Below, piece after piece: positions 38,910-55,836 of a DNA stretch of 64,000 nt; position 1 is the stretch's first letter, and each line of letters opens with the position of its first letter. The notes beneath the pieces are model-generated. The model was not told where the DNA came from. It was given only the letters and a program-made list of their open reading frames with translations, and made no database searches. The position numbers and the translations under genes were made by a program. Source of the DNA: an uncultured Gemmatimonadales bacterium (GTDB taxonomy: Bacteria; Gemmatimonadota; Gemmatimonadetes; Gemmatimonadales; Gemmatimonadaceae); the NCBI GenBank assembly GCA_963850905.1, contig CAWKMU010000004.1:512001-576000 (forward strand), in the 5' to 3' direction.

Positions 38910-39354
38910 GGAGGCTGGACCTTCGCCGATTCGAGTAGTGAATGCCGAAGTCGCCGAGAGATGCGGCCATGCCAGCGCACGCGTGGTGAGTGAGTATACT
39001 CGCCCAGCTCGAATTGTGTATTGAGACCACCCTGCGCGACTGGGGGCGGCGCAGCCGATCGGAGGGGACGCTCGCGGCACCGGTGGTGGTAAAGGGCTAA
39101 CCCGTCAGACGAGCTCGCATGCGTTGTATGCTACTTGACTGCTTACAGTTTCATTTGGCAATATCGTAATATGCGTAATTACACTGGTGCTCCATTATAT
39201 TGCGTTGTGTGACCGATCGCGTGTCCCGGACCCATCCCTGCGTCTTGGTGCTTGGACTCGAGGCGAGCGGTTGTCGCCGTTCGCCGAGAACGCAGGGTTG
39301 CGGTGATCCGACAGCGGCGCGCGCCACAACACTACGATCACGAGGGAGTCGTTT

Positions 39355-39864
39355 GTGAGTGAATCGAATCAGGACCACGCCGCGAAGCTGAGCGACCAAC
39401 TCTGCTTCGACCTGTACGCGGCCGCACGGGCGGTCACCCGTGCCTATGGGCCAGCCCTCGCCGCTGTGGGGCTCACCTACCCACAGTACCTGGTCATGAC
39501 CACACTATGGCAGCACGCCCCGCGCACGGTGAAGGAGCTGGGGCAGAGGCTCGATCTCGACTCCGGCACGCTGTCGCCGCTTCTCAAGCGACTCGAGTCG
39601 GCTGGTCTGGTGACCCGCCACCGCCGCCCCGATGACGAGCGCACAGTCGAGATCGCCCCGACGGCCAAAGGACGCGCGCTGGTCCGCGACGCTGCCGGCG
39701 TGCCGAGGGCGATGGCCGGCGCGATGGGGATCTCGGCTCAGGAAGCGAGACGCACCCGCGCCATATTGGGAAAACTGATCGCGTCCCTCGGGCGCACCCC
39801 GGACGACGAAGCGACTCTCGTGGCGGAGGCCGGCGACGCATCCCCGCGCCGTGCGGCCTCGTGA
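39355..39864 (+). CDS. MarR family regulator, OhrR-like (paralogue 1)
   Basis: LSDQLCFDLY (N-terminal Cys), LTYPQYLVM, LDSGTLSPLLKRLE and R..DDER; GGGAG RBS. Confidence 0.9.
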   Translation: MSESNQDHAAKLSDQLCFDLYAAARAVTRAYGPALAAVGLTYPQYLVMTTLWQHAPRTVKELGQRLDLDSGTLSPLLKRLESAGLVTRHRRPDDERTVEIAPTAKGRALVRDAAGVPRAMAGAMGISAQEARRTRAILGKLIASLGRTPDDEATLVAEAGDASPRRAAS

Positions 39865-40090
39865 TTGGCCACCTCGTCGCCACTGGTTGGCCTGTCCGCT
39901 TTGTTGTCGTGCCGGTGCTCCTCGTCGGGCTCCTCGTGACACGGTGGCTGCTGCGCCGAACGCGATCGCCGGCCGGCTGGCGCGCCCCGTCCGTTTGACG
40001 AGCGTTTGCGCGGCAGACGGCGTGGCAGAGCCGCTCGACCGCGGCCACGACGGTCGCGGCCGCTTACGCCACCGTTCGGCTTAGGCTCTA

Positions 40091-40594
40091 TTATCGGGCC
40101 GCACGTCGCGTGCGGCCATCCTCTGCGCCTTCGGTCGTCTGGTCGGCGCGCCGGGCGAGCGACGTCGTCACTTCTTTCAAAAGGGCGCGGAGCCGCTGGC
40201 CCGCGTCCGCCGTCAGACCCATGGCGGACGCCATCTTGGTCGGCACGCCTGCCGCCTCGCGCAGGAGCGCGGTTCCCTTCAATGTCAGGGCGACCTCGAC
40301 CGCGCGCTCATCCTCCTGGCGCCGGCCGCGGGTGACCAGGCCGGATGCGTCCAGTCGCTTGAGGAGCGGCGACAGGGTGCCCGAATCGAGCTCTAGTCGG
40401 TCGCCAAGCTCGGTGACAGTGCGCGGCGCGCGCTGGCGCAGCGCCACCATGACCAGGTACTGCGGGTAGGTCAGCCCCAGCGACGACAGGAGCGGCCGAT
40501 AGGCGCGTGTAACGGCCCGCCCCGTAGCACAGAGATCGAAACACAGGCTCTCGCTCAGGTCGGCTGCCTCTACTATGTGCTTCAGATTTACCAC
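40091..40594 (-). CDS. MarR family regulator, OhrR-like (paralogue 2)
   Basis: LSESLCFDLC, LTYPQYLVM and LDSGTLSPLLKRLD; GAGAGG RBS before GTG 40594. Confidence 0.88.
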   Translation of the reverse strand: MVNLKHIVEAADLSESLCFDLCATGRAVTRAYRPLLSSLGLTYPQYLVMVALRQRAPRTVTELGDRLELDSGTLSPLLKRLDASGLVTRGRRQEDERAVEVALTLKGTALLREAAGVPTKMASAMGLTADAGQRLRALLKEVTTSLARRADQTTEGAEDGRTRRAAR

Positions 40595-40760
40595 GGATGA
40601 CCTCTCGTCAATCGAGACGACTGGAGCGTCGGAGGAGCTGCGCTCGCCCGCGTACCTGCGAGCCATCGGGCGACTCCGTGGCGGCGCGTCACCGGCGACC
40701 CCTGCTAGCGCTCGCTCCGCGGCGGCGCCTTGGTGGGCGCTCGTCGCAGACGCTTGACCT

Positions 40761-40827
40761 ATAATATAACGATCAATCAAGTTGTCAATGATTGTCTATT
40801 GACAATTTCATTTGTACACGATAGAAT
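40761..40827. promoter_or_regulatory. Back-to-back sigma70-type promoters with phased operator-like boxes
   Basis: Plus strand: TTGACA(40799-804)-17-TAGAAT(40822-27). Minus strand: TTGACA(40788-83)-16-TATTAT(40766-61). Confidence 0.75.
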
Positions 40828-40911
40828 AGTACACCAAGGGATTGGAGGTGGCGGCGCCCGATCGACTCCCGCGCCACCGCCCTCACCACACTCCCCGCTC
40901 CAGGAGGTCGT

Positions 40912-41409
40912 ATGCTCGCCCGACGGCACGTTCAAACCATGGTGACGCTCACGGCGCTGGCCGCGATCGCAGCGTGTAACCCGTTCGCCACCAAACCGAA
41001 GGTCGGCCAGATTGATCCTGAGAACTCCTCCGCCAACTTGGGATGGAATGCGACGCTGTCGACGCCCGGTGGCATGACGGGAGCAGTCGACCTCCACGGT
41101 ACTGCAACGCTCGTCTCACATGGCTCCGGCAAGAGCGTCGCGACCATAGCAATCAGCAACGCGGCGCCGAGCGGCGTGCACCCGTGGCACGTGTATCAGG
41201 GGCAATGCGGCGATAATGGCGCTGTCGTCGGCTCGGCGACCGCGTACCCGCCGCTCAACGTCAATGGGGCTGGGACCGCGACCGCGATGGCGACGTTGCC
41301 ACTCGAGCTCCCCACCTCAGGTACCTACTACGTCGCCGTGAATGCGTCGGCAGCCAACATGCAGACGGTTTTGGCCTGCGGAAATTTGGCACCGCCGAAC
41401 GCCGGCTAA
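40912..41409 (+). CDS. Lipoprotein with Cu/Zn-SOD-like / CHRD-like beta-sandwich
   Basis: AGGAGG RBS; lipobox IAAC; HPWHVYQGQC...YPPL...YYVAVN...LACGNL. Confidence 0.7.
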   Translation: MLARRHVQTMVTLTALAAIAACNPFATKPKVGQIDPENSSANLGWNATLSTPGGMTGAVDLHGTATLVSHGSGKSVATIAISNAAPSGVHPWHVYQGQCGDNGAVVGSATAYPPLNVNGAGTATAMATLPLELPTSGTYYVAVNASAANMQTVLACGNLAPPNAG

Positions 41410-41503
41410 CGCCACGCGCACGCCGGCGTGGATCGCTGATCCAGTGCTGACCTCACGCCGGCTGGGCCGTGTACCAGCCGGCGGTGAGCGCCGGAGCCAG
41501 ACG

Positions 41504-42688
41504 ATGGGCTGGCGGACTATGGACATGTTGCGCGCCGTCTCGGTCGCGATCGGCGTGTACTTCGCGTTTCGCGCCATCTGGGCGGCGAGCACGGTCCTCC
41601 TCGTGGTCTTTCTCGGTATCCTGTTCGGACTTGCCGTGTCGGCCGGCGTCGACCAGCTCGCGGGCGCGCACCTAGGGCGCTGGCACCTGCCGCGCGCCGT
41701 GAGCGCCGCCGCGATCGTGCTCGGCCTTTTTGGATCGCTTGGTAGTATCGGCGCAGCAATGTATCCGACCCTGGCCGAGCAGGCCCAGGAGATCCAACGC
41801 CGGCTACCAGAGGCTGTGCGCAAGGTCTCCACGTGGACGACGGCCGAGGAGGGCGGAATCGTCCGCGCGATCGCCGGGCATCGCGCGGTCGATAGGGCAC
41901 TGCCAGGGCCCGCGATCCCCCGCCCTGCTGCCGCGAGCGGCCCCGATCGAGCGCCGCCCTCTGGCGACACATCCGATATCGCCGCACGGGTCTCCGACCA
42001 GGCGACCGCGCTGACCCGATTTCTGTTTGGTTTCGTCGGCTCGACCGTCGAGGTGATCGTCTACGCGCTCCTGATCCTCTTTGTGGGCGTCTATGTCGCG
42101 GCCGACCCCACCCTCTACCATCGCGGCCTGCTTCACCTGTTTCCGCACCGGGCACGCGAACGCGCCGGCGACGTCTTGAGCGCGATCGCGCTCGTACTCC
42201 GAAAATGGCTCGTGACGCAGGCGATCGCGATGCTCACGATTGCCGCCGTCTGGGCAGTGGCGCTCTCGCTCCTCGGGGTTAAAGCCGCGCTGGCCCTAGC
42301 TGTGATCGCGGGGTTCCTCGAGTTCGTGCCGACCATTGGGCCAACGCTCGCCGTGGTGCCGGCGCTTGCGATGGCACTGCTGGACTCGCCCCAGAAGGCA
42401 GCGTCGGTGCTCGTGGTCTATCTCATCATCCAAGGCATCGAGTCCAATATTCTGATCCCGATGCTTATGAAGGGGCAGATTCATCTCGCTCCCGCGCTCA
42501 CGATCGTGGCGCAGGCGCTCATGACCCTCGCGTTCGGCTTTTTGGGACTTATTGTCGCCGTCCCGCTGACGGCCGCGCTCATCGTCCCGGTCAAGCTGCT
42601 CTACGTCGAGGACGTGGTCGGCGACGGCATGACCGACGGTGAGACTGACCCCGCGAGCGCCATTCTGGTCGGACAGCTCGCGACGTAG
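41504..42688 (+). CDS. AI-2E family (PerM-like) transporter
   Basis: WL..Q...M, LEFVPTIGP, IQGIESNILIP and GFLGLIVAVPLTA; start uncertain. Confidence 0.85.
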   Translation: MGWRTMDMLRAVSVAIGVYFAFRAIWAASTVLLVVFLGILFGLAVSAGVDQLAGAHLGRWHLPRAVSAAAIVLGLFGSLGSIGAAMYPTLAEQAQEIQRRLPEAVRKVSTWTTAEEGGIVRAIAGHRAVDRALPGPAIPRPAAASGPDRAPPSGDTSDIAARVSDQATALTRFLFGFVGSTVEVIVYALLILFVGVYVAADPTLYHRGLLHLFPHRARERAGDVLSAIALVLRKWLVTQAIAMLTIAAVWAVALSLLGVKAALALAVIAGFLEFVPTIGPTLAVVPALAMALLDSPQKAASVLVVYLIIQGIESNILIPMLMKGQIHLAPALTIVAQALMTLAFGFLGLIVAVPLTAALIVPVKLLYVEDVVGDGMTDGETDPASAILVGQLAT

Positions 42689-42820
42689 ACTCGGCAGGCG
42701 CCGCGCACACGCCCGCACCGCTCGAGGCGCAATGGTCCTCCTCGCCGGCTCCTGCGTCTCGATCCAAGACATATGACGGCCAATACAGTTGTCTCCTATA
42801 TCGTCGACTCCTATTCTCTA

Positions 42821-42849
42821 TTGACTTATCGCATTGCGCACAATATAAT
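42821..42849 (+). promoter_or_regulatory. Sigma70-type promoter with ATTG-N4-CAAT box in the spacer
   Basis: TTGACT-17-TATAAT; ATTGcgcaCAAT at 42833-44. Confidence 0.8.
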
Positions 42850-42935
42850 GGTAGGCGAGTGCTGAGGCCCGCACGCCACGGACTCGCCGAGTCGCGCGTG
42901 CCGCCACACTCTCGGCCCGGGAGGGCCCCGTGCGC

Positions 42936-43283
42936 ATGCAACGCTCTCTGCAGATCCTAACTGTTCTCACGACGCTCGCGACGGTCGTCGCGTGCGGAAC
43001 GTACGGGAGAGGGGTGAAGAGCCCGAGTCCCGAGTACGCCTCCACCACCGTCGTCTGGGACTCCGGTCCGATCGACCGGGACTACAATAGCCAGCGAACC
43101 GAATTAGACGCGCGGCACACTCAAGAGATCGCCAACCCACGAGCTGGCGAATCGTCGGATCAAATGAAGGACCGGCAAGGAGCAGAGAGCAAGGACCTCG
43201 ATGCGCGATACGCAGCGGGCAAAGCGTCTCACTCCGATAGCGTGCCGGCGTCGGATCATGGACACGACGACAAGTCTCGCTAG
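42936..43283 (+). CDS. Small hydrophilic lipoprotein
   Basis: GGAGGG RBS; lipobox VVAC; charged helical body. Confidence 0.7.
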   Translation: MQRSLQILTVLTTLATVVACGTYGRGVKSPSPEYASTTVVWDSGPIDRDYNSQRTELDARHTQEIANPRAGESSDQMKDRQGAESKDLDARYAAGKASHSDSVPASDHGHDDKSR

Positions 43284-43373
43284 CCCGAGGCGGGTGGACG
43301 TGGATCGTGCGGTGTGACCGCACGATCCCGTGCGGAGAGGGGACGAGAAGATTCCCTTAAGGTGGAGGCTGCA

Positions 43374-43763
43374 ATGACGTGGAAATGGAGTGCCCGCGGA
43401 CACCTCTTGAGCATGGGGGTGGTGCTATCGTTGCTCGCCAGCTCGGCATGTGCATCACATCCACCCTACCAGCATCCGGATCTACGCACGGACTCCCACG
43501 GCGACGTCGTGAATCAACATCCGGGCGATGCCGCTCGCTCTACGCGCCAGGCACCGCCCCCGGCTCAGCACGCAACGCCGCCGGCGCAACCTGGGCCGGA
43601 GTACAGCTGGGGGTCGGGCCAATACAGCTGGGACAGCAACGACTTCCAATCCCGTGGCGGCGGGTGGGCCGTTCCACCCACCGGGTATTACGCCTGGACC
43701 GCGGGCAGCTGGGAAAAAAGCCGCACCGACAACTGGGTCTATGTCGAAGGCCACTGGCAGTAG
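43374..43763 (+). CDS. Small lipoprotein with YXWGXW-like repeats
   Basis: GGAGG RBS; lipobox SSAC; YSWGSGQYSW, AWTAGSW and YVEGHW. Confidence 0.7.
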   Translation: MTWKWSARGHLLSMGVVLSLLASSACASHPPYQHPDLRTDSHGDVVNQHPGDAARSTRQAPPPAQHATPPAQPGPEYSWGSGQYSWDSNDFQSRGGGWAVPPTGYYAWTAGSWEKSRTDNWVYVEGHWQ

Positions 43764-43853
43764 GAGCGAAGTGTCGATAGCAGCGGTCCATTGTTGGTTA
43801 GTCCGCCTTCCCGTGATGCGATCTGGCGCGTACCTCAAACATCAGGAGCTCCA

Positions 43854-44003
43854 ATGTTGTTCACAATCGCGGCCGTGCTCTTCATCCTCTGGATCTTAGG
43901 ATTCGGTGTATTCCACGTGGCAGGTGGCTTGATTCACTTGCTCCTGGTTCTGGCGGTCATTTCACTACTCTGGCAATTGATTGCTGGGCGACGGGCAGTC
44001 TAG
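43854..44003 (+). CDS. lmo0937/DUF5670 family small membrane protein
   Basis: AGGAG RBS; ML.TIA.VL.ILW.LGF.....[13 protein letters not shown]......GRR. Confidence 0.85.
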
Positions 44004-44059
44004 TGCAAACCGCGAACCGAGGCCGTACCATGCGCTCCATCGCCCTGCTGCGAGGCGGT

Positions 44060-44632
44060 ATGAAGGTCACGATGGGAGTGCTTGCGTCGCTGCTGTTGCT
44101 GTCCGCGCCGGCGGCTGCGCAAGAGAGAAGTGGCGGCGATCACGGTGGCCAGGAAGGCGGAGCCGGCGGCCACACGGTCGGCGGTGGACACATTCCCGCG
44201 CATGGTCCCGTCGCGTTCAAGGGCGGACAACATGCGGGCGAACCACACGGGCCCCCGAAGGGACAAGCGTTCGTGGATCAGCCGGGACACCCGAACGCCC
44301 CTCACGTTCACGCCGACAATGATGAGTGGGTCGGTCGAACGGCGCCCAATGATCCGCATTACCACCTGGATCATCCGTGGCAGTACGGACACTTCACCGG
44401 GGGGTTCGGGCCGACCCATACGTTTCGCTTGGCCGGTGGCGGCCCCGGTCGGTTCTGGTTCGGGGGCAACTACTTCAGTGTCGCGCCCTACAATGTTGGC
44501 TACGCCGGTGACTGGCTGTGGAACTCCGACCAGATCGTGATTTACGAGGACCCCGATCAGGTAGGGTGGGAGCTAGCGTATAACCCGAGGCTGGGGACGT
44601 ATGTCCATGTGATGTATCTCGGGAACCACTAA
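44060..44632 (+). CDS. Secreted Gly/His/aromatic-rich hypothetical protein
   Basis: Signal peptide ending AAA-Q; C-domain [28 protein letters not shown]. Confidence 0.7.
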
Positions 44633-44676
44633 CGAGACACAGTGAGCCCGCGGTCACTCGCAGCACTGAGAGTCTC

Positions 44677-44850
44677 ATGACGATCCCGCTCTTCTCCGCA
44701 CCCGTTGGACCCATCACGGAACACCGCCGGCGCCGGCGGCGATGGCAGCGACGACGACATTGGGGCACGGTGCTGCTCAGACGGGCCGTCGTGTTGGAGG
44801 CGGGGGCCTTGGTTGCGCTGGTGATCTGCATCGTCCTGGTGCTGGACTAA
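44677..44850 (+). CDS. 57-aa Arg-rich protein with C-terminal TM helix (below the ORF-track cutoff)
   Basis: MTIPLFSAPVGPITEHRRRRRRWQRRRHWGTVLLRRAVVLEAGALVALVICIVLVLD*; co-oriented with the upstream cluster; weak GAGAG RBS. Confidence 0.45.
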   Translation: MTIPLFSAPVGPITEHRRRRRRWQRRRHWGTVLLRRAVVLEAGALVALVICIVLVLD

Positions 44851-45025
44851 CGACCGACACTGCAACATCAGTCCCCCGGCCGACTCGACGACGCGCATTG
44901 TCCTTATGCAATGGCGCGCGACGGTGAGTCGGCCAGGGGAGCTCCCAGCGCCGCGGGACCGCATCCGCCAATCGAATGACGAGCGATCGACTACATCAGG
45001 CGCTTGGACCCCCTTGCACGTGTGG

Positions 45026-46933
45026 TCAACCCGGCACCGCACATGGCATGGTCAACGTGAACGTTGAGCCGACGCCAAGGGTGCTGACGACCGTGACATC
45101 GCCGCCCATCGCTCTCGCCAGATCGCGGCTGATGGCGAGGCCGAGTCCCGTACCTTCGTCCGTCCCCGTCAGCCGCCGGCCAACCTGGACGAACGGCTCG
45201 AAGAGCGTCTTGATGTGCTCGGCCGCGATCCCGCGCCCGGTGTCGCACACGGTCAGGTCGACCGCGGCCGCCGTTCCGGATCGGGAGATTGAGGTCGCGT
45301 CGTGGACGCGACGCCGACGGTCGGACGGTATAGCCGCCAGTGTGATGCTGCCGCCGGCGTCTGTGAACTTGATCGCGTTGGACAGCAGATTGAGCAGGAT
45401 CTGGAGCACTTTCTCCAGATCCCCGTGGAGAACGAGCGTGGGGACGCAGGGCGTGCGCACGAACGCAAGGCCTTTTGCCGACGCCAGCGGCTCGACCATC
45501 TGCGCGGCGCCGTCGAGTACCTCGCTCACGGGGCTGTCCACATTGACGAACGGAACCTCCCGCGATTTGAGCCTTGCGAAGTTCAGTACGTTGTTGATGA
45601 GGCCGAGCAGGTGCTTACCTGCCGTTTGGATTCGACCCAGCGCGTCCAGCTGCGCCACGGTTACCGGCCCGCGCAGGCCAATCGCGACGAGTTCCGTGTA
45701 CCCCAGAATCGCGTTCAGCGGTGTGCGCAGCTCGTGGCTCATCGACGTGAGAAACGAGGTCTTGACCTGATTGGCGTGCTCCGCGTCTTTGCGCGCAGTG
45801 TCCGAGCGCGCGCGAGCGGCGTCGGCGCTGATTTGCGCTAGACGCACTCCATCGTAGCGACGCGCACCGTCCAGGAGATCCGCGCAACGGCTCGCGAGAT
45901 CCTCCGCCAGTTGGACATCGTCCACCGTATAAGGGACGGCCCCGATCGGATTCACGAACGTGATCGCGCCGCGGAGTCGTTTGTGAATAATGAGCGGCAC
46001 GACGAGGAGGGTCCCGAGCCCGAGCGCTCGCAGCAGACGCAGATTATCCGGACCGTGCGCCGCGTCCGCGAGCACGGCGTCGATGTCGGTGTCCACAATC
46101 GTCGAAGCCCGCGTCTCCGCGATGAGCGACACGCCCAGCGGATCGCCCGGGGCTGGCGACCAGTGCTGGTCGAGCTCCTGCACGATGGCCGTTTTCATCG
46201 GGTCGGGGTGCACAATGGGCAGCCGCCACCACGAGCCATCGGGCTGGTCGACATCGACGATGGACCAGGCGCCGACCTTCGGGAGGGCAACCGTCGCGAT
46301 TGCCCCATAGACGCCCTCGAGGTCGAACGAGACGCCCAGGCGGCGACTCTCGTCAGCCAGGAATACCGCTCGGGCTCGGGCGCGGTCGGCGCCTTGGGCG
46401 ACGTCCTGCTCCCGCAAGGCGGCAAAGAGGAGGCGCTCCGTGATCGCCCGCTGACGCGAGCGTGCGTCCTCCCGGCGACGAGTGGCTCGGACCGTGACCA
46501 CCAGACAATCCAACCGACCGCCATCCTCCACGACGGGCCACAAATCACAGCACCACGTCGTGCGACGCGCCGGCGATTCGGCCCCGGGCGGGAATCCCAA
46601 GTGCGCGTCGTGCACGGCGACACCGTCGCGTCGGACTCGATCGAGAAGCCCCTTCAGCCCTTCGTACTCGGCGGACGGCAGCGCGTCCTCAATGGGCGCC
46701 CCGCAGTCGGCGCGACCGCCAGCGGTCTCACTGAGTCGTCGAAACGCCGCATTGGCGAACACAAGCACGTGCGCCGCCCCACTCACGACCGCCGACGGCA
46801 GCGGCGCGCACTCCAGGTGCGCGTGCGCGAGGCGCACCGACTCCTCGCTAGCGGTCGGCACACAACGCTCCAGGGAGGCGACCGGGCTCCCGACCGGCGC
46901 CAGGCGCGGTGGATGCGGCGTGACTGTAACCAT
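45026..46933 (-). CDS. Cytoplasmic sensor histidine kinase (PAS-like + GAF + HisKA + HATPase)
   Basis: MSHELRTPLNAI, QILLNLLSNAIKFT, D.GRGI, FEPF.Q and GTGLGLAI; LLVVPL...LRGAITF GAF segment; ATG overlaps the upstream TGA. Confidence 0.9.
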   Translation of the reverse strand: MVTVTPHPPRLAPVGSPVASLERCVPTASEESVRLAHAHLECAPLPSAVVSGAAHVLVFANAAFRRLSETAGGRADCGAPIEDALPSAEYEGLKGLLDRVRRDGVAVHDAHLGFPPGAESPARRTTWCCDLWPVVEDGGRLDCLVVTVRATRRREDARSRQRAITERLLFAALREQDVAQGADRARARAVFLADESRRLGVSFDLEGVYGAIATVALPKVGAWSIVDVDQPDGSWWRLPIVHPDPMKTAIVQELDQHWSPAPGDPLGVSLIAETRASTIVDTDIDAVLADAAHGPDNLRLLRALGLGTLLVVPLIIHKRLRGAITFVNPIGAVPYTVDDVQLAEDLASRCADLLDGARRYDGVRLAQISADAARARSDTARKDAEHANQVKTSFLTSMSHELRTPLNAILGYTELVAIGLRGPVTVAQLDALGRIQTAGKHLLGLINNVLNFARLKSREVPFVNVDSPVSEVLDGAAQMVEPLASAKGLAFVRTPCVPTLVLHGDLEKVLQILLNLLSNAIKFTDAGGSITLAAIPSDRRRRVHDATSISRSGTAAAVDLTVCDTGRGIAAEHIKTLFEPFVQVGRRLTGTDEGTGLGLAISRDLARAMGGDVTVVSTLGVGSTFTLTMPCAVPG

Positions 46934-48682
46934 CAAGTCCGCCGGCTCGCTGCCGTCGATGCGGCGGATTCCTGGTCTCCGTGCGCGACAGCCCGATACC
47001 TCCGCCGTTGCGGCTCACCCACCTCGCTCGCGTAGTCCAGTGCGATCAGTCGCTCCAACACCCCAGTGACGTCTCCGTCGGCCATACCAGCCTGCCTCGC
47101 GAGCAGGTCCGGCGATGCCTCGCGGAGCCGAATCAGCACGTCGAGGATCGTGCCTTCTCGCTCCGTGAGTCCGGCGTAGCCCGCACGGCGCACGCGCTGC
47201 TGGCGATCGGGGACGCCAGTAGTGATGCCGTGATAATCCTCGAGCCGCTGCCCAATGACCGCGCCGCGCGCACCGATCTCGTAGGTCCGATAGTCCCGAC
47301 TGTGCTGGCTGCCGCGCATCTTGACCACCACGAGCACGGGCCGGAGCTCGCCGGCGATTTCCACATATCGCTGCACGATGATGTCGTCCGTGATGAAGGA
47401 CACACGCTCGAGTGTGACACTCGTCGTGGGAAATGCCGGCGTTTCGGCGGTCATGACGACGGTGACGCCCGTCGCCGTGAGCGCGCCGACGAGGCGATAC
47501 AGCGACTCTCGGAAGTCCTCCCGAAAGGTGGGCGCGAGCGCCACCTCGAAACCCGATAACGAATCGATGACCACGCGTGTTGCGCCGAGCCGCTCGACCT
47601 CATCCAGAATCGCCGCCAGCGTCTCATCAACGGAGAGGTCCAGTGGCCGCAGATAGATCAGCGCCAACTTGCCGCGCTCGACCATCGCTGCGAGATCGAT
47701 GTCCAGCGCTTTCGCTCTCGCCAGGTACGCTTCCGGGTATTCCTCGAAGACGACCGCCACCCCAGCTTCACCCCGCGTGAGACCCTCGGCCAGGAACTGC
47801 GTGGCGAACGTCGTCTTCCCGCTGCCCGCCGGACCGCTCAACAAGACGGCGTCGCCCGCAGGGTATCCGCCACCGGTCATCGCATCGAGTCCCGGTACGC
47901 CCGTCGCGAGCCGCTCGGTGCGACGCGGCCGTCGCGCTTCTTGCTGCTCCGGAATACGCGGGAAGACCCGGATGCCGGTGTCGGTGATGCGAAAGCTGTG
48001 CAGCCCCGGCATCGACGATCGCCCGCGCACCTTGACTGCCTGGACCTTGCGAACGACGGAGTTGCGGTCCAGGACCTGCGACAGCCAAAAGAATGCCATC
48101 GGCCACGGTGAAGACGGGATTCTGCAGCTCGGGCTCAACGTATTCGCCGATCAGGAAAGAGGTGACTTCCCAGGTCGTCAGGTGAAGCGCCAGCCGCTGG
48201 ACGAACTGGTCCAGTCCCATCGCGTCCGCGCCGTTGGCGTCACGTGCCTGCAGCCCGAGGGTGCGGAACGAGTCGACGACGACGAGCCCGGGGTTGGCCT
48301 GCTCGACTTCGTCGACAATTCGCTTGAGCACGGCGGCAAGGTCGTGCCGCAGCACTTCCTCGGTCAGATTAATGAAGCGCACCGCAGACCCAACGAGCTC
48401 GGGCCGGAAGAAGCGAAACTGGCGCTGGTAGCGAATCATCTTGAGCGTCGGCTCGCCGAGGACCGTGAAATACAGCGCCGGCCGCTCGACGGTCGCGTTG
48501 TGAAAGACGATCTGTTGCGCCAGCGTGGTCTTCCCCGCGCCAGGGCCGCCGGCGACAAGATTGAACGAGAATTCCGGCAGGCCGCCGCGTAGCACTGCAT
48601 CGAGACCTGGCACCCCAGTCGCCAACGATCCGATCAACGACCGGTCCGCGACGCCCTCGTCAATCGACATGAGGTGAATCAC
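46933..48682 (-). CDS. Double-domain KaiC-like (RecA-fold) ATPase with C-terminal wHTH; +1 frameshift at 48087-90
   Basis: ATGVPGLD and GGPGAGKT (domain I); ATGVPGLD, GPAGSGKT, FEE, VVIDS, VSFITD and KMRGS (domain II); T4 run where DGILWL needs T3. Confidence 0.85.
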
Positions 48683-49131
48683 GGCATACCTCGATTGTGG
48701 CGCCCGCTCGCACGAGTCGTGGCGGGCGTGAGCGCGCCGTGGTCCAGCAGGCCAAGCGCCATATCGTCTCCGATGAGGCGGCCGAGGAGCTCGATGAGTG
48801 CCGAGAGCACAGCGGCAGCGCCGTCGTTTGCCGCCGCGGCCCCGTGGCGGAGGGCGCCCTCAGTCAATCCATCCAGGCAGTAGACCGACCCGGCGCTGAT
48901 TCGTACCGTCTCGAGCACGGGGTGTCCGCCTGCCACCTGAGCGGCCGCGAGCGCGCGAGCAAAGAGCGCACGGCACCCATCCGTTCCCATCCAACGCGAC
49001 AACTCATCCGATACGCGGTGGCAGACGCGGTCCGCGGCTCCCGTCGTATCGGCGCCGAGCGGTATTGACGCCTCTCGGGTAAGGAGCTTGGATGCGAGCG
49101 CTCGTGCGGCTACTTCGGTGGGTGGCGGCAC
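48679..49131 (-). CDS. Small alpha-helical hypothetical protein coupled to the KaiC-like gene
   Basis: GGGGAGG RBS before GTG 49131; L.RWMG.DGCRALF.RAL and LIELLGRLIG..MA..LL; GTGA overlap with the KaiC-like start. Confidence 0.7.
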   Translation of the reverse strand: MPPPTEVAARALASKLLTREASIPLGADTTGAADRVCHRVSDELSRWMGTDGCRALFARALAAAQVAGGHPVLETVRISAGSVYCLDGLTEGALRHGAAAANDGAAAVLSALIELLGRLIGDDMALGLLDHGALTPATTRASGRHNRGMP

Positions 49132-49493
49132 GTGGCGTGCCTCCCCGGGTAACGACCGCCGCAGCGCCACGAGCGTGCGACATTTCGACTGGCGCTGGTA
49201 CAGAGGACCTGTTGCGCCCAACTGGCGGCGACTACATAGGTCAGCCTCAGCAATATACCGCCGCGCGCCGGATTTAGCGAGCATCGCCGGATTTCGCGAG
49301 CTCCGGCGGAGGACGAGACGCGGCGGCCGGCCGTCGTGAAACTGCACGCGACGCTCGTATTCGTCGACGCTGGGAGGCTGTCCGGCGCGTTGGCGACGGC
49401 GGTGAAGTGCACGTTGTCGTTGACGCTACCGAATACCCACGTCACTGACGTGCGCACAGCAACCGTGTCGGGCGTGGACAATCGCAACGACCG

Positions 49494-49760
49494 TCAGTCT
49501 CGCTTGCCTGCGAGGAGGCGGCCGAGAACCAGCCCGATGGCACCGGCGATCAACAAAGAGCGGAACGGATGCGTCCGCGTCTGGCGCCTAATGGCACCGC
49601 GGGCCGCGTCGAGGTCGACGTCCCCCGCCATCTCTTCCACTCGATCACGCACGTTGACCGCAGCGTCCGACACGCTCTTGCCCGCGCTTGCCGCTTTCCG
49701 TTCTACTCGGCCCATAAACTCCTTGGCCTCATCCCTCACGTCTTCGAGTTTCCCCGCCAT
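49494..49760 (-). CDS. ElaB/YqjD/DUF883-like tail-anchored membrane protein
   Basis: GGGAGG RBS; helical N-part followed by HPFRSLLIAGAIGLVLGRLL. Confidence 0.75.
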   Translation of the reverse strand: MAGKLEDVRDEAKEFMGRVERKAASAGKSVSDAAVNVRDRVEEMAGDVDLDAARGAIRRQTRTHPFRSLLIAGAIGLVLGRLLAGKRD

Positions 49761-49854
49761 CGTGACCTCCCTTCTGCTCACTGTGAAAACCGCGCCCGCA
49801 CTCGGGCGAACTCGGTAGGCTTTGACGACACGCTCGGTCTCACCTACCTGCCTA

Positions 49855-50064
49855 CTACACGGCTTCGCGGCGTCCGGCCGCGACCAACACGACGCCTACC
49901 ACCAACGCGAAGGCCCCTGCCGCAGGTGTGATAAACCCCTTCTTCGCGCTGGACACCTGAACCGGACCGATGTCCGTGCTGTGCCGACTCTTCGTGTAGC
50001 TGAGTCCGCCGTAGGCGATCACCACACCGCCCAACACGATGAGCAGAATGCCGACTAATCGCAT
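49855..50064 (-). CDS. DUF3185-like small membrane protein
   Basis: GILLIVLG....YGG.SYT......IGP........P..G...LVVG. Confidence 0.7.
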   Translation of the reverse strand: MRLVGILLIVLGGVVIAYGGLSYTKSRHSTDIGPVQVSSAKKGFITPAAGAFALVVGVVLVAAGRREAV

Positions 50065-50187
50065 TCATCCCTTCCTTTGCATGGGTTGGGGCAGGCGCCG
50101 CGGGCATCCGCGTAGCAACCCGAGCGCGCCTTCACCGGACGTGTATCTCGACAAGGCCTCCAGCGACTCCGCTACGCCCGAGTGCGG

Positions 50188-50264
50188 ACTGTGGGCAATA
50201 ATATAGTACACAGTGTGTTTATTAGCAATTAGCTCTTGACACATTTAATTGTGAACAATATTAT
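50188..50264. promoter_or_regulatory. Divergent sigma70-type promoters within a 15-bp-phased box array
   Basis: Plus strand: TTGACA(50236-41)-17-TATTAT(50259-64). Minus strand: TTGCTA(50228-23)-17-TATATT(50205-00). ATTGtgaaCAAT at 50248. Confidence 0.75.
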
Positions 50265-50309
50265 AGGACAGTGAATGATGAGACGTACTATTTCCATGGA
50301 AAGGGGCTT

Positions 50310-51482
50310 ATGCAAAGGAAGCAACGCGTGACCGCGGCGAGTGGCTCTCTCGTGTTCGCATGGGCGGCACTAGCCGCCTGTAGCTCGTACGGCGGTCCGC
50401 CGCCAAGCGGGGATGTCGCGCCCAGCTACAGCACGGCCAGCGCATCGATTACCGTCGGGCCGCCTGACCTACCCGTCTACGAGCAGCCGGTGTGTCCCGG
50501 CGACGGGTATGTCTGGACGCCCGGCTATTGGGCCTGGGGCAGTGCGGACTACTACTGGGTGCCCGGCACATGGGTGGAGGCGCCACAAGCTGGCTACCTC
50601 TGGACTCCTGGATATTGGGGCTGGGGCGGCAGCGCGTTCGTTTTCCATGAGGGCTACTGGGGCGAGCAGGTCGGGTTCTACGGTGGGATCAACTACGGCT
50701 ACGGCTACTCCGGCCAGGGATATGACGGCGGCCGTTGGGACAACGGACACTTCGCCTATAACCGCTCGGTCAGCAATGTCGACGTGAACGTCGTTCACAA
50801 CGTGTACAACACGACGGTTGTGAATAACACCACGACGATTGTGAATAACACGACGACTCGCGTGAGCTACAACGGCGGAAACGGCGGCGTCACCGCACGC
50901 GCGACAGCCGAGGAGCAGACTGCTGCACAGGGGAGACACATCCCCCCAGTCGCTGCGCAAACCGCGCACGTCCAGGCTGCCCGCTCCAACCCGCAGTTGC
51001 AGGCTTCCGCGAACCACGGTAAACCGCCGATCGCCGCGACGTCCAAACCGGGAGCGCTGAATGAGCCCGGGGTGGTGGCGGCTACAGAGGCGGGGGCGAT
51101 GCATAATTCGCCTGCTGTGGCAGTGAACAATGACCCGCGGCCCAGCACGGCGGTGCACCCGAACGACCTGCCGCCTGTCGAGCACCCGGTCGCCGCTAGT
51201 ACAGGGAACCCGAAGCTGGACCAGCAATACCAGCAACAGCAAGCCAAGCTAGTCGCGCAACAGAACCAGGACCGTGTCAAGCTCCAGCAGAAACAGGATC
51301 AGGACCACCAGCGGTTGGCGCAACAGAAGGCTGATGCTGCGACGACACAGAAGCTGGAGCAGCAGCACGCGCAACAGACGCAGCAGTTGGCGCAAAAACA
51401 TGCCCAGCAGTTGGCGACGTTGAAAGCGCACCAGCAACCACCGCACCAAGATCAGGCGGTTGCGACGAAGGACAAACCATAA
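50310..51482 (+). CDS. YXWGXW-repeat lipoprotein with Asn/Thr/Val-rich middle and Gln-rich coiled-coil tail
   Basis: Lipobox LAAC; YVWTPGYWAW, YYWVPGTW and YLWTPGYWGW; (VNNTTT)2; Q-rich C-terminus. Confidence 0.85.
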   Translation: MQRKQRVTAASGSLVFAWAALAACSSYGGPPPSGDVAPSYSTASASITVGPPDLPVYEQPVCPGDGYVWTPGYWAWGSADYYWVPGTWVEAPQAGYLWTPGYWGWGGSAFVFHEGYWGEQVGFYGGINYGYGYSGQGYDGGRWDNGHFAYNRSVSNVDVNVVHNVYNTTVVNNTTTIVNNTTTRVSYNGGNGGVTARATAEEQTAAQGRHIPPVAAQTAHVQAARSNPQLQASANHGKPPIAATSKPGALNEPGVVAATEAGAMHNSPAVAVNNDPRPSTAVHPNDLPPVEHPVAASTGNPKLDQQYQQQQAKLVAQQNQDRVKLQQKQDQDHQRLAQQKADAATTQKLEQQHAQQTQQLAQKHAQQLATLKAHQQPPHQDQAVATKDKP

Positions 51483-51534
51483 TCGCTCGTTCAACTACCT
51501 GGGTTCAACTCCATCGAGCGCGAACCCAGCAAGC

Positions 51535-51574
51535 CTGCCGGCCGGCCTTCGCACCGCGAATCGCCGGCCGGCAG
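51535..51574. terminator. GC-rich hairpin downstream of the YXWGXW gene
   Basis: CTGCCGGCCGGC..TTCGC-acc-GCGAA..GCCGGCCGGCAG; a second stem CTGGGTTC/GAACCCAG at 51499-529. Confidence 0.5.
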
Positions 51575-51677
51575 CTATATCTCAAGTTGCTAGATCTAGG
51601 GAATGACGGGCGTGACCACTCTGCGCAGGCGCTCAGCGGTGCGAGCGCCGCCTCCGGGCCGGAAGGGGCCACCTCAC

Positions 51678-52028
51678 ATGGCAGCGATAGGCAACGCGAT
51701 ACGTACAGCCCTCCCACACGAGGGCGGACCGCTCCGCAAAGCGATGCGCGATGCCGCGCCAATGTGGGGCTTCAACCCCGGACAATCCATTCGGGTCGTG
51801 GAGTCGGCGTCCCCGGACTATCGTGTGCGGCTCACGTTCAGCGAACGCCGGGCGGGCGAGTTTCTGGTCGAGTACCTCGCCAAGCAGTTCAAAGGATTTG
51901 ACTCACAGTTCGCCCCCGGCGACTGCGACCGATTCGTCGACGGCGGAGCGCTGTGTTGGTCGTTCCCGACTGAAGAGGAGCGCCGCCGTTTCGTCTCAGC
52001 GCTGCACACAGTCGTTGGGATCCAGTGA
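51678..52028 (+). CDS. Hypothetical protein
   Basis: Globular-looking ORF (YRVRLTF..FLVEYL..LCWSFPTEEERRRF); start uncertain. Confidence 0.5.
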   Translation: MAAIGNAIRTALPHEGGPLRKAMRDAAPMWGFNPGQSIRVVESASPDYRVRLTFSERRAGEFLVEYLAKQFKGFDSQFAPGDCDRFVDGGALCWSFPTEEERRRFVSALHTVVGIQ

Positions 52029-52290
52029 CGGCACGACGCACGCGCTCGCTGTAGTTCGCACGGCTTCGGAAGACTCGTCCGTGCCGTCAGCGGCGGCCTC
52101 GTGAAAGTGCTCGAGCGGCCACCGCGCGACGCGCGTCCGCAACCCGGAGTGCGGCACGGCGAGCGAGATCGCGGAGTTTAGCTCCATCGGGAAGGCCTTA
52201 ACATCGCCACGTCACTGATCTGATCGCGTCAACACCATCTCCCACTATATTATACGCAATATGATTGCGTCCAAAATGTTTAACGGCGTG

Positions 52291-53715
52291 ATGACCGAGC
52301 CAGTTCCAGTTGACGCCGCAGGTGAGACGGCACCACTCGGCGTTCTCGTCGCGCCCCGCCCACCGCTCGTGGTCGACCCGAGGCAGCCAGCCCCGAGTCA
52401 GCCGACTTGGGACCAGCCGGCGCCGGACGAGGCGCCCACTCCCGCCGAGCCGCTGGCCCCTGCCCCGCCGAGAGTGGTTAGCAGAAGGGTAGCGCTGTAT
52501 CGACGACTGCTCGGCTCCCCTCGACGGCTCATTGCGGCCGCGATGATGCTGGTCGTGCTCATTGCCGGACTGCTCTGGTGGAATGCAGCCCGCGCGCCGG
52601 CTGTGCACTACGTGACGGCTCCCGTGACACGGGGCTCCGTCGCCAAAGCGGTCACGGCCAGCGGGACAGTCAACCCCGTCCTCAACATCCTGGTCGGCAC
52701 CTACGTCTCGGGCGTGATCAGCGCGCTCTACTGCGACTTCAATACGACAGTGACGAAAGGGCAGGTCTGCGCCAAGATCGATTCGCGGCCCTACCAGGTA
52801 GTCGTCGATCAGGAGCAGGCCAACGTCACCACGGCCATCGCGCAGCTCGCCAAGGATCAGGCCGCCCTCACGTATGCCAAGCTGTCGTACGATCGATCGG
52901 TGCCGCTCCTCAAGCAGGACTACATCACGGCGGACAGCGTGGACCGAGCAACGAATACCCTCGACCAGGCGGCTGCCCAGCTCAGGGTCGACTCCGCCGG
53001 GATCGTGCAACATCGCGCGGCGCTCGACGCTGCCCAGGTCAATCTGGGCTACACCGACATCGTCTCGCCTGTCAACGGCACGGTCATATCACGAAACGTG
53101 ACCGTGGGGCAGACGGTAGCGGCCAGCTTCACGACGCCGACGCTGTTCGTGATCGGCGAGGACCTCACCAAGATGGAAGTCGACGCCAATGTCAGCGAAA
53201 GCGACATCGGTGCGATCAAGGTCGGCGATACGGCGACTTTCACCGTCGAGGCGTACCCGCAACCGTTCGCCGGCGCGGTGGCCCAGGTGCGCCAGGCGCC
53301 CCAGTCGGTCCAGAACGTGATTACCTACGATGTCGTGATCAATGTCGCCAACCCCGCGTTTCTGCTCAAACCTGGCATGACCGCGACCTGCCGCATCATC
53401 ACGGCTCGACGCGATAGCGTGGTGCGCGTACCGGATCTGGCGCTGCGATACGCGCCGAGTACAGTGGCCGCACAACCCACTGCTGCTGTGCCAGCTGCTG
53501 GCGCGGCCGCTGCGGGAGTGACGGGCGGCGCCACCACTCGCGGGCAGGTCTGGCTCCTTCGCCAGGGCAAGCCCGCGAAGGTATCCGTGATCGTGGGACT
53601 CGACGACGACACGTATTCCGAGGTCCTCCAGGGCACCCTGCAGGTCGGGGACACCGTCATCACGTCCGAACGACGCGCCGCCGCCGCGCCAGCCGCGTCG
53701 CAACCCCGCCTCTGA
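52291..53715 (+). CDS. MacA-like efflux membrane-fusion protein
   Basis: VTASGTVNP, VSGVI..L..DFN..V.KGQ, I.SPVNGTV.SR.V..GQTVAAS and LLKPGMTA. Confidence 0.9.
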   Translation: MTEPVPVDAAGETAPLGVLVAPRPPLVVDPRQPAPSQPTWDQPAPDEAPTPAEPLAPAPPRVVSRRVALYRRLLGSPRRLIAAAMMLVVLIAGLLWWNAARAPAVHYVTAPVTRGSVAKAVTASGTVNPVLNILVGTYVSGVISALYCDFNTTVTKGQVCAKIDSRPYQVVVDQEQANVTTAIAQLAKDQAALTYAKLSYDRSVPLLKQDYITADSVDRATNTLDQAAAQLRVDSAGIVQHRAALDAAQVNLGYTDIVSPVNGTVISRNVTVGQTVAASFTTPTLFVIGEDLTKMEVDANVSESDIGAIKVGDTATFTVEAYPQPFAGAVAQVRQAPQSVQNVITYDVVINVANPAFLLKPGMTATCRIITARRDSVVRVPDLALRYAPSTVAAQPTAAVPAAGAAAAGVTGGATTRGQVWLLRQGKPAKVSVIVGLDDDTYSEVLQGTLQVGDTVITSERRAAAAPAASQPRL

Positions 53716-53733
53716 GCTGACGCGAGAGGCGGT

Positions 53734-55836
53734 ATGCCAGACATCATGATCGACGTGCAGGACATCACCCGCACCTACCATACGGGCGATGTCGATGTCA
53801 AAGCGCTCCGCGGTGTCAGCTTCAGTCTCGAGCGCGGCGAGTTCGTCGCAATCGTGGGACCGTCGGGTTCAGGCAAGTCGACACTCATGTCGATCCTCGG
53901 CTGCCTCGACCGACCCACGAGCGGCCACTACCTGCTCGAGGGAGTCGACGTTGCAACGCTGTCCGAGCCGGAGTTGGCCGCTGTCCGAAGCACGCGGCTG
54001 GGGTTCGTGTTCCAGAGCTTCAATCTCCTGGCCCGAACGAGCGCCATCGAGAACGTCGCGTTGCCGCTGTTCTACTCGACATCGGGCCCGGGAGATCGCG
54101 GGAGCCGTCTTGAACGGGCTCGAGACGCCCTGAAACTCCTTGGCTTGGGCGATCGCGAGGGCAATACCCCGGCGCAGCTCTCGGGCGGACAGCAGCAGCG
54201 GGTCGCCATCGCACGGGCATTGATCAACAGTCCGAGCCTACTACTCGCGGACGAGCCAACGGGAAATCTCGATACCCGTACGTCGCACGACATCATGGAC
54301 ACCCTGGTCGCGCTCAATCGGCAGCATGGCGTGACCATTATCGTGGTCACCCACGAGCAGGACATCGCGGCCTATGCGGGGCGGGTCATCACGGTCCGGG
54401 ATGGGCGTATCGTGTCGGATACACGGACACCCCACCCGAGCAGCGAGTCGGTCGCCTCAGCTGGCGGCGAACCCTCGGCGTTATTCCAGCCGCCGGCAGT
54501 ACTGCAGAAAGTCGAACCACGAGCGCACGTTGGCTTCGGTCTCATGATCGCGAGCGCTGCCATCCAGGCGATCGCTCGGAACAAGCTGCGGTCGGCGCTA
54601 ACCATGCTCGGCGTCTTCATTGGCGTGGCCGCACTCATCGCCATGGTCGCCGTCGGGCAGGGGGCAAACGAAGCGGTCGCCAAACAGATCGCGAGCCTCG
54701 GCTCCAATCTGCTGGTGGTGATGCCGGGCGCCACGACGACCAACGGCGTCCGCGCGGGAAGCGGCAGCGCGTCGACCCTCACCGTCACCGATGCCGAGGC
54801 CATCCGACGCGAAGATGTCGCGGTCGGACAGGTCAGCTATCTCGTCCGTCAGTCGGCACAGGTGGAGTATGGCGATCAAAACTGGACGACCACGGTCCAG
54901 GGCGTCTCCGTCAACTATCCGCCGATCACCAATTGGGAGATTGCATCCGGCCGCGCTCTATCGGACGACGATGAATCGAGTGCCGCGCTCGTCGCCCTGA
55001 TTGGCCAGACCGTGGCCCGCCAACTCTTCGCGCCATCCGAGATTCCGGTCGGGGCCACGATCCTCGTCAAAGGCATACCGGTGAAGGTGCTCGGCGTCCT
55101 GGTCAGCAAGGGCCAGAGCTCGTTCGGGCAGGACCAGGATGATCTCGTGATGATTCCCTTCTCGACTGCCGAGAACAAAGTCCTCGGCGTGGCCGCTCCA
55201 AACCAGCCGCAGACGGCGCTCACCGCGAACTATCCGCCGCCGCAAAATCCGTTCGGCATGAACGCGCGACTGACCGGCTACGTCAACTCGATCTACGTTC
55301 AGGCCGCCTCGCCGATGCTCGTGCAACCGGCGATCGCACAGCTCACCGCGACCTTGGTCCGCAGGCACGCCATCCGACCCGGCGAGGCGCCGGATTTCGC
55401 GGTCCGTAATCTCAGCCAGATCGCCACCGCGGCAGCGGGCAGCAGCCATGTGATGTCCGTGCTCCTGGCGGTCGTCGCGTCCATCTCGCTCCTGGTAGGC
55501 GGCATCGGCATCATGAACATCCTGCTCGTCTCAGTCACCGAGCGGACCCGGGAGATCGGCCTCAGAATGGCCATTGGTGCGCGGCGGATCCAGGTGCTCC
55601 TGCAGTTCCTCGCCGAAGCCGTATTTCTGAGCGTCACGGGCGGCGCCGCAGGGATCATTGCCGGGATCGTGACGTCCAAGCTCATCTCCGTCATCGCCGG
55701 TTGGCCCACCGATATCCTTCCCTCCTCCATTGTCGGAGGGTTTCTCTTCTCGGTTGCTGTCGGGATGTTCTTTGGGTTCTATCCGGCGCGGAAGGCATCG
55801 AAGCTGGATCCGATCGAAGCCCTGCACTTCGAGTGA
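53734..55836 (+). CDS. macB: MacB-like fused ABC ATPase-permease
   Basis: GPSGSGKS, LSGGQQQR, ADEPTGNLD, RSALTMLG and GGIGIMNI.LVSVTERTREIG. Confidence 0.88.
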   Translation: MPDIMIDVQDITRTYHTGDVDVKALRGVSFSLERGEFVAIVGPSGSGKSTLMSILGCLDRPTSGHYLLEGVDVATLSEPELAAVRSTRLGFVFQSFNLLARTSAIENVALPLFYSTSGPGDRGSRLERARDALKLLGLGDREGNTPAQLSGGQQQRVAIARALINSPSLLLADEPTGNLDTRTSHDIMDTLVALNRQHGVTIIVVTHEQDIAAYAGRVITVRDGRIVSDTRTPHPSSESVASAGGEPSALFQPPAVLQKVEPRAHVGFGLMIASAAIQAIARNKLRSALTMLGVFIGVAALIAMVAVGQGANEAVAKQIASLGSNLLVVMPGATTTNGVRAGSGSASTLTVTDAEAIRREDVAVGQVSYLVRQSAQVEYGDQNWTTTVQGVSVNYPPITNWEIASGRALSDDDESSAALVALIGQTVARQLFAPSEIPVGATILVKGIPVKVLGVLVSKGQSSFGQDQDDLVMIPFSTAENKVLGVAAPNQPQTALTANYPPPQNPFGMNARLTGYVNSIYVQAASPMLVQPAIAQLTATLVRRHAIRPGEAPDFAVRNLSQIATAAAGSSHVMSVLLAVVASISLLVGGIGIMNILLVSVTERTREIGLRMAIGARRIQVLLQFLAEAVFLSVTGGAAGIIAGIVTSKLISVIAGWPTDILPSSIVGGFLFSVAVGMFFGFYPARKASKLDPIEALHFE

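Follow-up and report, generated by a model that had tools for sequence, protein, structure and literature searches.

What reads the AT-rich intergenic patches in this part of a Gemmatimonadales genome, and which genes answer to them? The window analyzed here is a 64,000-nucleotide stretch (G000:C4:512001-576000) from an uncultured Gemmatimonadales bacterium, whose genome is referred to as G000 (4.49 Mb, 82% complete, 65% GC). A first-pass annotation had proposed that phased ATTG-N4-CAAT boxes on near-consensus sigma70 promoters are bound by two neighboring OhrR-like MarR proteins, which repress lipoproteins, small membrane proteins and a MacAB exporter in place of the peroxidase gene ohr. Its observation was partly confirmed and its interpretation partly supported. 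We put at roughly 80% the probability that OhrR-type operator arrays overlie sigma70 promoters here and are bound by the two adjacent OhrR-like proteins, which would silence genes for lipoproteins and small membrane proteins in the absence of a stress signal. The arrays, the two regulators and the lipoprotein genes next to the arrays are as follows.

39129..39188, unstranded: array A, four operator units upstream of marR1
39355..39864, plus strand: marR1, OhrR-like MarR of 169 aa with a single cysteine, Cys17, and Asp19, Tyr31 and Tyr42
40091..40594, minus strand: marR2, OhrR-like MarR convergent with marR1, 63% identity; GTG start inferred from a GAGAGG ribosome site
40757..40831, unstranded: array B, five units; promoters at 40788-40761 (minus, to marR2) and 40799-40827 (plus)
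40912..41409, plus strand: 165-aa lipoprotein with a predicted Cu/Zn superoxide dismutase (SOD) fold, CHRD-like; conserved putative target
42779..42853, unstranded: array C, five units, three of them strong; promoter TTGACT-17-TATAAT at 42821-42849
42936..43283, plus strand: 115-aa lipoprotein, predicted helical hairpin; commonest partner of this OhrR clade
50194..50268, unstranded: array D, five units; promoters at 50236-50264 (plus) and 50228-50200 (minus)
50310..51482, plus strand: WXXGXW-repeat lipoprotein with a Gln-rich tail
52240..52284, unstranded: site E, preceding macA; a strong operator at 52255-52269 between two weak flanking units

The repeat unit was identified de novo by expectation maximization (EM) on two sets of sequences. 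On nine patches at relatives with a single OhrR gene, which gave the first operator matrix, period 15 scored 225 bits, compared with at most 131 bits for other periods between 11 and 20, and the consensus was CACAATTAAATTGTG. On 51 ohr upstream regions from unrelated metagenome loci among the matches listed, which gave a second, independent matrix, the same consensus was recovered, again at period 15 (695 bits; next best, 593). The 15-bp OhrR operator CACAATT-N-AATTGTG was thus found de novo in relatives, and AT-rich CAATT-N-AATTG operators overlapping target promoters, a criterion of the OhrR subfamily, are present here, as had been proposed. In published work, the OhrR box of Bacillus subtilis and Agrobacterium tumefaciens is given as TACAATTNAATTGTA (PMC6034001), the B. 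subtilis ohrA operator consists of two tandem 15-bp units, TACAATTAAATTGTA twice (PMC2651793), and the Chromobacterium violaceum OhrR footprints hold ATAGTGCACTAT, the 12-bp junction palindrome, together with a CAATT-A-AATAG unit (PMC3469484). Because the period-15 consensus from the EM runs and these boxes agree, the 12-bp box first noticed is the junction of two adjacent operators; and since the published boxes and the tandem probe agree, 15-bp phasing is ordinary for OhrR.

The three promoters reported earlier (TTGACA-17-TAGAAT at 40799, TTGACT-17-TATAAT at 42821 and TTGACA-17-TATTAT at 50236) and the boxes touching their -10 elements (40811, 42833 and 50248) were present where they had been placed. 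The further boxes claimed at 40796, 42818 and 50233 mismatched five of eight defined bases; they are the points where the -35 hexamer breaks the array. Promoters and units keep a fixed register: the target-facing -35 begins at position 13 of a unit, and the -10 falls two units further on. Of the 29 good promoter calls made within arrays, 17 had the -35 starting at unit position 13, seven at 14, four at 11 and one at 12. Arrays B and D carry an outward-facing promoter at either end, including two leftward ones that were absent from the earlier list: a fourth strong promoter, TTGACA-16-TATTAT at 40788-40761, facing marR2, and a weaker TTGCTA-17-TATATT at 50228-50200, facing a DUF3185-like gene. 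Array A, also absent from that list, has a decayed leftward promoter, TTGCCA-17-TCAAGT, which is near-consensus in the relative G002, where the leftward gene encodes a Transgly_assoc protein; no promoter of marR1 itself was found. The four patches said to share one architecture did so for B, C and D; the patch before macA, site E, did not, having one strong unit and no sigma70 promoter (an in-register -10, TATGAT, without a -35; best plus-strand score 11/18). Near-consensus sigma70 promoters are rare in the genome and concentrated in this region, which held four of the six found by a strict pattern in the 4.49-Mb genome and four of the 20 with a weighted score of at least 16/18; a promoter scan of the region gave 7, compared with 1.6 ± 1.4 in shuffles.

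A rival reading is that the patches are mere AT-rich strong promoters, their period arising from the TTG, CAA and TAT words of the hexamers or from the AT preference of a nucleoid silencer. In keeping with this, the -35 hexamer distorts the units on which it falls, and single boxes are barely enriched: ATTG-N4-CAAT had 30 genome matches, against 15–24 for other spacings. The signal is the tandem array, whose 15-bp recurrence was borne out. A motif-free autocorrelation of five pooled AT-rich patches peaked at a lag of 15 bp (z 4.84) and again at twice that lag, 30 bp (z 4.0); the lag-15 value was matched at any lag in 0/400 shuffles, and four other AT-rich patches of the genome gave a lag-15 z of 0.2. 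When the patches were shuffled with the -35 and -10 hexamers held fixed where present, the three-unit score was matched in 0–2 of 3000 shuffles per patch (0–1 for arrays B, C and D), and shuffles of the four control patches matched their own scores in 194–1791 of 2000. The 16 other near-consensus promoters of the genome scored at most 1.1, compared with 13–25 for the arrays, and no arrays accompany the lipoprotein genes in genomes where a search did not find the regulator (see below). We therefore regard a promoter-composition origin as scarcely credible.

The arrays stood out in a scan of the whole genome. With the first matrix at three units, the sites at 50224, 42809, 39144, 40757 and 52240 took ranks 1–5, and a distal site at C3:2599790 took rank 6; with the ohr-derived matrix at four units, array D, the genome's best operator array, was followed by the distal site, B and A in ranks 1–4, with the macA site ninth. 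The distal array (G000:C3:2599790-2599880, also L066:5790-5880), absent from the first-pass annotation, is conserved in G001 and, in part, in G002; it contains two near-identical 18-mers 45 bp apart and lies upstream of an uncharacterized 117-aa gene. A 19-base pattern search of five relatives gave ten matches, none of which scored above 7.0 beyond the known arrays, so that no large distal regulon is seen in these five. A weak three-unit site scoring 7.0 in the relative G004 (L093:861-1560), upstream of an OmpA/Pal-type lipoprotein gene, may mark a further envelope target.

Both MarR proteins resemble OhrR. Their best Protein Data Bank (PDB) matches were 2PFB, 2PEX and 1Z91 (E 3e-34 to 3e-32), which are OhrR of the Xanthomonas campestris type and of B. 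subtilis, and the best NCBIfam model for both was OhrR. Each has the OhrR sensor residues Cys17, Tyr31 and Tyr42, and each lacks the C-terminal resolving cysteine of 2-Cys OhrR; in MarR2 the sensor-position cysteine is joined by a second one four residues on, in helix 1. The recognition helix LDSGTLSP is present in both and invariant in 92/92 homologs, and both genes are under purifying selection (dN/dS 0.12–0.19). Among the loci of their closest relatives, 9/12 lie in Gemmatimonadales, Gemmatimonadetes or Gemmatimonadaceae. The genome set (G handles) and the set of loci L022-L030 overlap, and counts from the two are kept separate.

We compared 11 loci of this OhrR clade, nine from genomes and two from metagenomes among the matches listed; six of the 11 had trained the first matrix. 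A metagenome scan for OhrR returned mostly canonical OhrR (78/80 among the matches listed) and was therefore used as a control set and not as a source of clade loci. The five-unit score was at least 26 in 9/11 clade loci and in 4/5 of those outside matrix training, whereas its median was 5 in 52 ohr-linked loci among the matches listed, nine of which reached 15; the arrays of this clade thus exceed the two or three units that are usual. An array adjoined the clade gene in all nine genome loci, and in 9/9 an array and a gene for the 115-aa or the 165-aa lipoprotein occurred within 2.5 kb; the two metagenome loci were short contigs without either lipoprotein gene. Loci of the 115-aa lipoprotein linked to this OhrR scored 18.6–28.4, whereas those in G006 and G081, two genomes in which no copy of this OhrR was found, scored 1.4, 0.9 and -2.6, and 28/28 loci of the 165-aa SOD-fold lipoprotein without a linked OhrR scored at most 7.8. 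Arrays thus track this OhrR clade and are absent at lipoprotein genes where the regulator was not found. Six OhrR-unlinked loci of the SOD-fold family (L098, L101, L104, L107, L108 and L110) have another palindrome nearby, of the type TTGACC...GGTCAA, which suggests that a different repressor may serve OhrR-unlinked SOD-fold loci. One clade member (L127:1-640) is divergent to groES and has, next to a short OhrR-type array, an inverted repeat that we take to resemble CIRCE.

Could another regulator, encoded elsewhere, read the arrays? The genome is incomplete and encodes three more distant MarR proteins (28–33% identity), yet the OhrR recognition helix occurs only in the two proteins of the window, and the arrays lie beside the clade gene in every one of the nine genome clade loci, which makes an outside reader very unlikely. 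Operator type, recognition helix and co-occurrence together support the adjacent OhrR-like MarRs as the most likely array readers, as had been proposed.

The first-pass annotation had also treated the twin arrangement as integral, and one can suppose that the two paralogs must act jointly, as a heterodimer or alternating along the array, and so integrate two thresholds. G000, G001, G002, G004 and L128 all retain the convergent pair, MarR2 forms its own well-supported clade in a quick tree, with the second cysteine in 6/6 members, and selection is purifying on both genes. The pair is found in 4/61 relatives and a single copy in two. The single-OhrR loci L025-L030, however, have equal or stronger arrays and the same lipoprotein genes, so two paralogs are not needed. 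With identical recognition helices and arrays that make no demand for two proteins, obligate joint action is unlikely, and pairing of the genes is an extra found in some lineages and not a requirement.

That the targets are lipoprotein and small membrane-protein genes and not ohr was supported by locus content and by searches for ohr. Ohr scored above the TIGR03561 cut-off in 0/5 carrier genomes tested; of 301 genomes of the order, the ten that were Ohr-positive included none of the five clade carriers. Within 2.5 kb, ohr was found in 0/11 clade loci, compared with 52/78 other OhrR loci among the matches listed. The canonical OhrR-Ohr arrangement, a linked or regulated ohr, was not seen in G000, which is only 82% complete.

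Several points weigh against the regulon proposed here. Ranking by the first matrix is partly circular, because its training promoters are partly homologous to those ranked. The ohr-derived matrix leaves array C outside the top 12 at every unit number and puts the macA site 6th (two units) or 9th (four units), and at two to three units chance GC-rich sites beat several arrays; with a 65% AT background, macA falls outside the top 14 for three units. The MarR proteins score 144 and 135 bits against a cut-off of 200 in the only OhrR model, a Vibrio equivalog. Two ohr-ohrR pairs inside the order are weak with the first matrix (6.6 and 3.4), and, at 82% completeness, G000 may have an unassembled ohr or another OhrR. 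Finally, the sensor cysteine is replaced by Ser, Ala or Gly in 16/92 homologs, which weakens the oxidation step.

This last point bears on the signal. Of 92 close homologs, 76 have Cys at the sensor position, 13 have Ser, two have Ala and one has Gly; in the quick version of the tree the cysteine was lost in at least five separate places, and the two cysteine-less members with DNA context, L027 and L030 (Cys-to-Ser, TCC codons), keep full arrays and near-consensus promoters. Position 19, two residues after the cysteine, is Asp or Glu in 92/92. Among 142 more distant representatives (146 less four without coverage of the position), 139 have Cys, so that three lack it, and four have Asp at the position of Asp19, a contrast that is indicative only because the sets were clustered differently and kin are not independent. 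Repeated loss of the cysteine in relatives casts doubt on peroxide as the only signal of the clade, and peroxide may not be what triggers the arrays. With the same repressor and operators, the inducer could instead be a ligand or condition sensed in a pocket around Asp19, the cysteine being a dispensable relic; the absence of a peroxidase among the targets fits such a scheme. On the other side, the cysteine and its two flanking tyrosines are kept in 76/92 homologs, both window proteins included, one conserved target has an SOD fold, and Asp19 may be structural only, Arg at 135 being nearly invariant too; the counts, moreover, come from different clustering levels, related sequences and a quick tree. 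We regard a non-peroxide inducer as a real but lesser possibility. A sister pair within the clade, P0040 and P0049, has one Cys and one Ser at the sensor position and may represent a second, independent duplication.

The arrays, their register, the outward promoter pairs of B and D, the promoter consensus, the OhrR helix and the co-occurrence are read directly in the sequence; for repression by the OhrR-like pair we propose the following. OhrR can bind tandem sites cooperatively, and the two proteins here may do so. Dimers would load every 15 bp and cover 60–75 bp, including both hexamers; as 15 bp is about 1.4 turns, successive dimers would sit on nearly opposite faces. With both hexamers covered, RNA polymerase would be occluded and marR2 also autorepressed, and we consider such repression by occlusion probable. 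Either paralog could repress, the recognition helices being identical. Release of these two proteins through oxidation or thiol modification of the N-terminal Cys17, in the manner of 1-Cys OhrR, has in our judgment slightly better than even odds, and the extra cysteine of MarR2 may shift its threshold. The output would be envelope or general-stress protection and not peroxide reduction, given that peroxidases are absent from the targets and that the SOD-fold lipoprotein is without a full set of metal ligands. More tentatively, we can picture a Gemmatimonadota branch of OhrR that kept the ancestral operator, dropped the peroxidase and, repeatedly, the sensor cysteine, and might have become a non-redox sensor with an invariant Asp/Glu pocket, gating through five-dimer coats on the genome's strongest promoters an envelope system of a metal-free SOD-fold lipoprotein and free-standing DUF6600/WXXGXW pieces.

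The remaining features of the locus are the putative co-targets and their neighbors.

41504..42688, plus strand: AI-2E family transporter, probably co-transcribed with the 165-aa lipoprotein gene; internal deletion in G004
42856..42935, plus strand: leader of the 115-aa lipoprotein gene, conserved; predicted hairpin over the ribosome site
43374..44850, plus strand: small genes after the 115-aa lipoprotein, probably part of the transcript from array C and differing in make-up between relatives
43374-43763, plus strand: WXXGXW lipoprotein
43854-44003, plus strand: DUF5670/lmo0937-family membrane protein
44030-44632, plus strand: secreted 200-aa protein
44677-44850, plus strand: 57-aa ORF
45026..49347, minus strand: uncharacterized open reading frame (ORF), a kaiC-like ATPase split between two frames, and a GAF histidine kinase; syntenic neighbors
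49494-49781, minus strand: DUF883/ElaB-like small membrane protein, below the family cut-off
49855-50064, minus strand: DUF3185-like small membrane protein, below the family cut-off
52290..55836, plus strand: macA-like adaptor and macB-like ABC exporter, possible weak member

The AlphaFold model of the 165-aa lipoprotein (pLDDT 82) matched, in all Foldseek matches listed, Cu/Zn-SOD or CCS domain II, and some of its relatives match CHRD. The model predicts the SOD beta-barrel with the conserved disulfide (C99 and C156, invariant in 88/88); the His-x-His copper ligands, the zinc loop and the distal His of SODs are not retained, H93-V-Y95 replacing H-x-H with Tyr95 in place of the second copper His. 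The model is shorter than SODs and has N144 where 33/88 relatives have His, a position mapped by inference to the distal ligand; the protein is predicted to have no SOD activity. The 115-aa lipoprotein has 24 homologs and no Pfam family, and its model gave no Foldseek match at E 0.001 or better. It is homologous to the C-terminal end of proteins of about 700 aa (L067:2170-4052 and L046-L064), which end in the same helical hairpin; the G000 copy belongs to DUF6600 and has W-G-W-rich repeats like those of the regulated WXXGXW lipoproteins. None of the 11 scored loci of these long proteins has an array. The leader, with a GGCCC-GGGA-GGGCC hairpin, is conserved in ten loci, including array-less ones; as its fold is weak and its covariation term about 0 (a double change in 2/12 pairs), we do not claim a structured RNA, and an Rfam scan of 38000-54000 gave no match.

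The DUF3185-like and DUF883/ElaB-like genes are probably transcribed from the leftward-facing promoter in array D. Membership of macAB, claimed earlier, is weak: there is one strong operator, identical in G004, but no clear promoter, and macAB was not in the fetched stretches of G001 or G002. The kaiC-like/kinase block was not accepted as an established regulon member, having no array in G000, G001, G002 and G004. Its kaiC-like gene (46933-48682, minus strand) is in two frames, with a break near 48088-48095, where G000, G001 and G004 share a single additional T within a short stretch of T; in G002 the gene is one 582-aa frame. Both halves have a dN/dS of about 0.1, the surrounding sequence, CTT T TGG, is similar to a +1 slippage site, and a pattern search for the break in 151 genomes found only G000 and G004. 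The break could reflect either programmed frameshifting or a systematic error of long reads. A phosphoketolase-like ORF (58143-60584, minus strand) seems to go out of frame close to its 3' end, its tail lying in the ORF 58332-58892, possibly through a sequencing error.

Among known systems, the closest is the 1-Cys OhrR/ohrA of B. subtilis (PDB 1Z91/1Z9C), which shares the operator consensus, the tandem 15-bp units (PMC2651793), the single N-terminal cysteine and the recognition helix; it differs in having two units where there are four to five here, in its target, the peroxidase OhrA instead of lipoproteins, and in the acidic Cys+2 residue present here. Operators likewise lie on promoters in C. 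violaceum, where ATAGTGCACTAT and CAATT-A-AATAG cover the -10/-35 of both ohrA and ohrR (PMC3469484), and in Streptomyces avermitilis a 28-nt OhrR footprint contains a pair of 13-nt sites, and OhrR has additional non-ohr targets (PMC6034001). Unlike the system described here, OhrR of C. violaceum, Xanthomonas and Streptomyces is in each case linked to ohr, and in C. violaceum and Xanthomonas it is of the 2-Cys type with a C-terminal cysteine, which both MarR1 and MarR2 lack. Paralogs with overlapping operators are known from the OhrR/OspR pair of Pseudomonas aeruginosa, and the OhrR-family regulators MgrA, SarZ, AbfR, MosR and AsrR have wider, non-ohr regulons (PMC4999210, PMC8567585). The regulons of the OhrR/OspR and MgrA type include peroxidases or are global, whereas the one here is small, local and lipoprotein-centered, with Ohr not found in the carriers tested. 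Small membrane proteins similar to those of this module occur in general-stress sets (ElaB/DUF883, YeaQ/YmgE and lmo0937-like). Those sets are linked to RpoS/SigB. Expression of lmo0937 is lowered by a SigB inhibitor (PMC3225968). Unlike them, the module here has housekeeping-type promoters and a predicted repressor, and no alternative sigma factor.

Operator, tandem spacing, paralog pairs and non-ohr targets thus all have precedent, and the novelty claimed in the first-pass annotation was overstated. Searches of the accessible literature for Gemmatimonad OhrR, WXXGXW/YXWGXW proteins, lipoprotein OhrR regulons and Cys-lacking OhrR found no description of this module. New are a Gemmatimonadota OhrR clade with promoter-interlocked arrays of about five units, its uncharacterized lipoprotein targets, and the invariant acidic residue beside a sensor cysteine, together with the loss of this cysteine from 16/92 homologs. 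Collectively, these observations describe a local regulon that is real and well supported and belongs to a known type, but whose targets have been rewired and whose sensor is eroding. It offers a precise regulon prediction in a widespread and barely studied phylum and would tie several lipoprotein families to one stress input, and the natural variants at the sensor position (Cys, Ser, Ala or Gly), in all of which the DNA-reading helix is the same, form a series for studying how a thiol peroxide switch gains a new input. As the operator logic is the textbook one of B. subtilis OhrR and its kin, the value of the system lies in its rewired targets and sensor and not in the motif.

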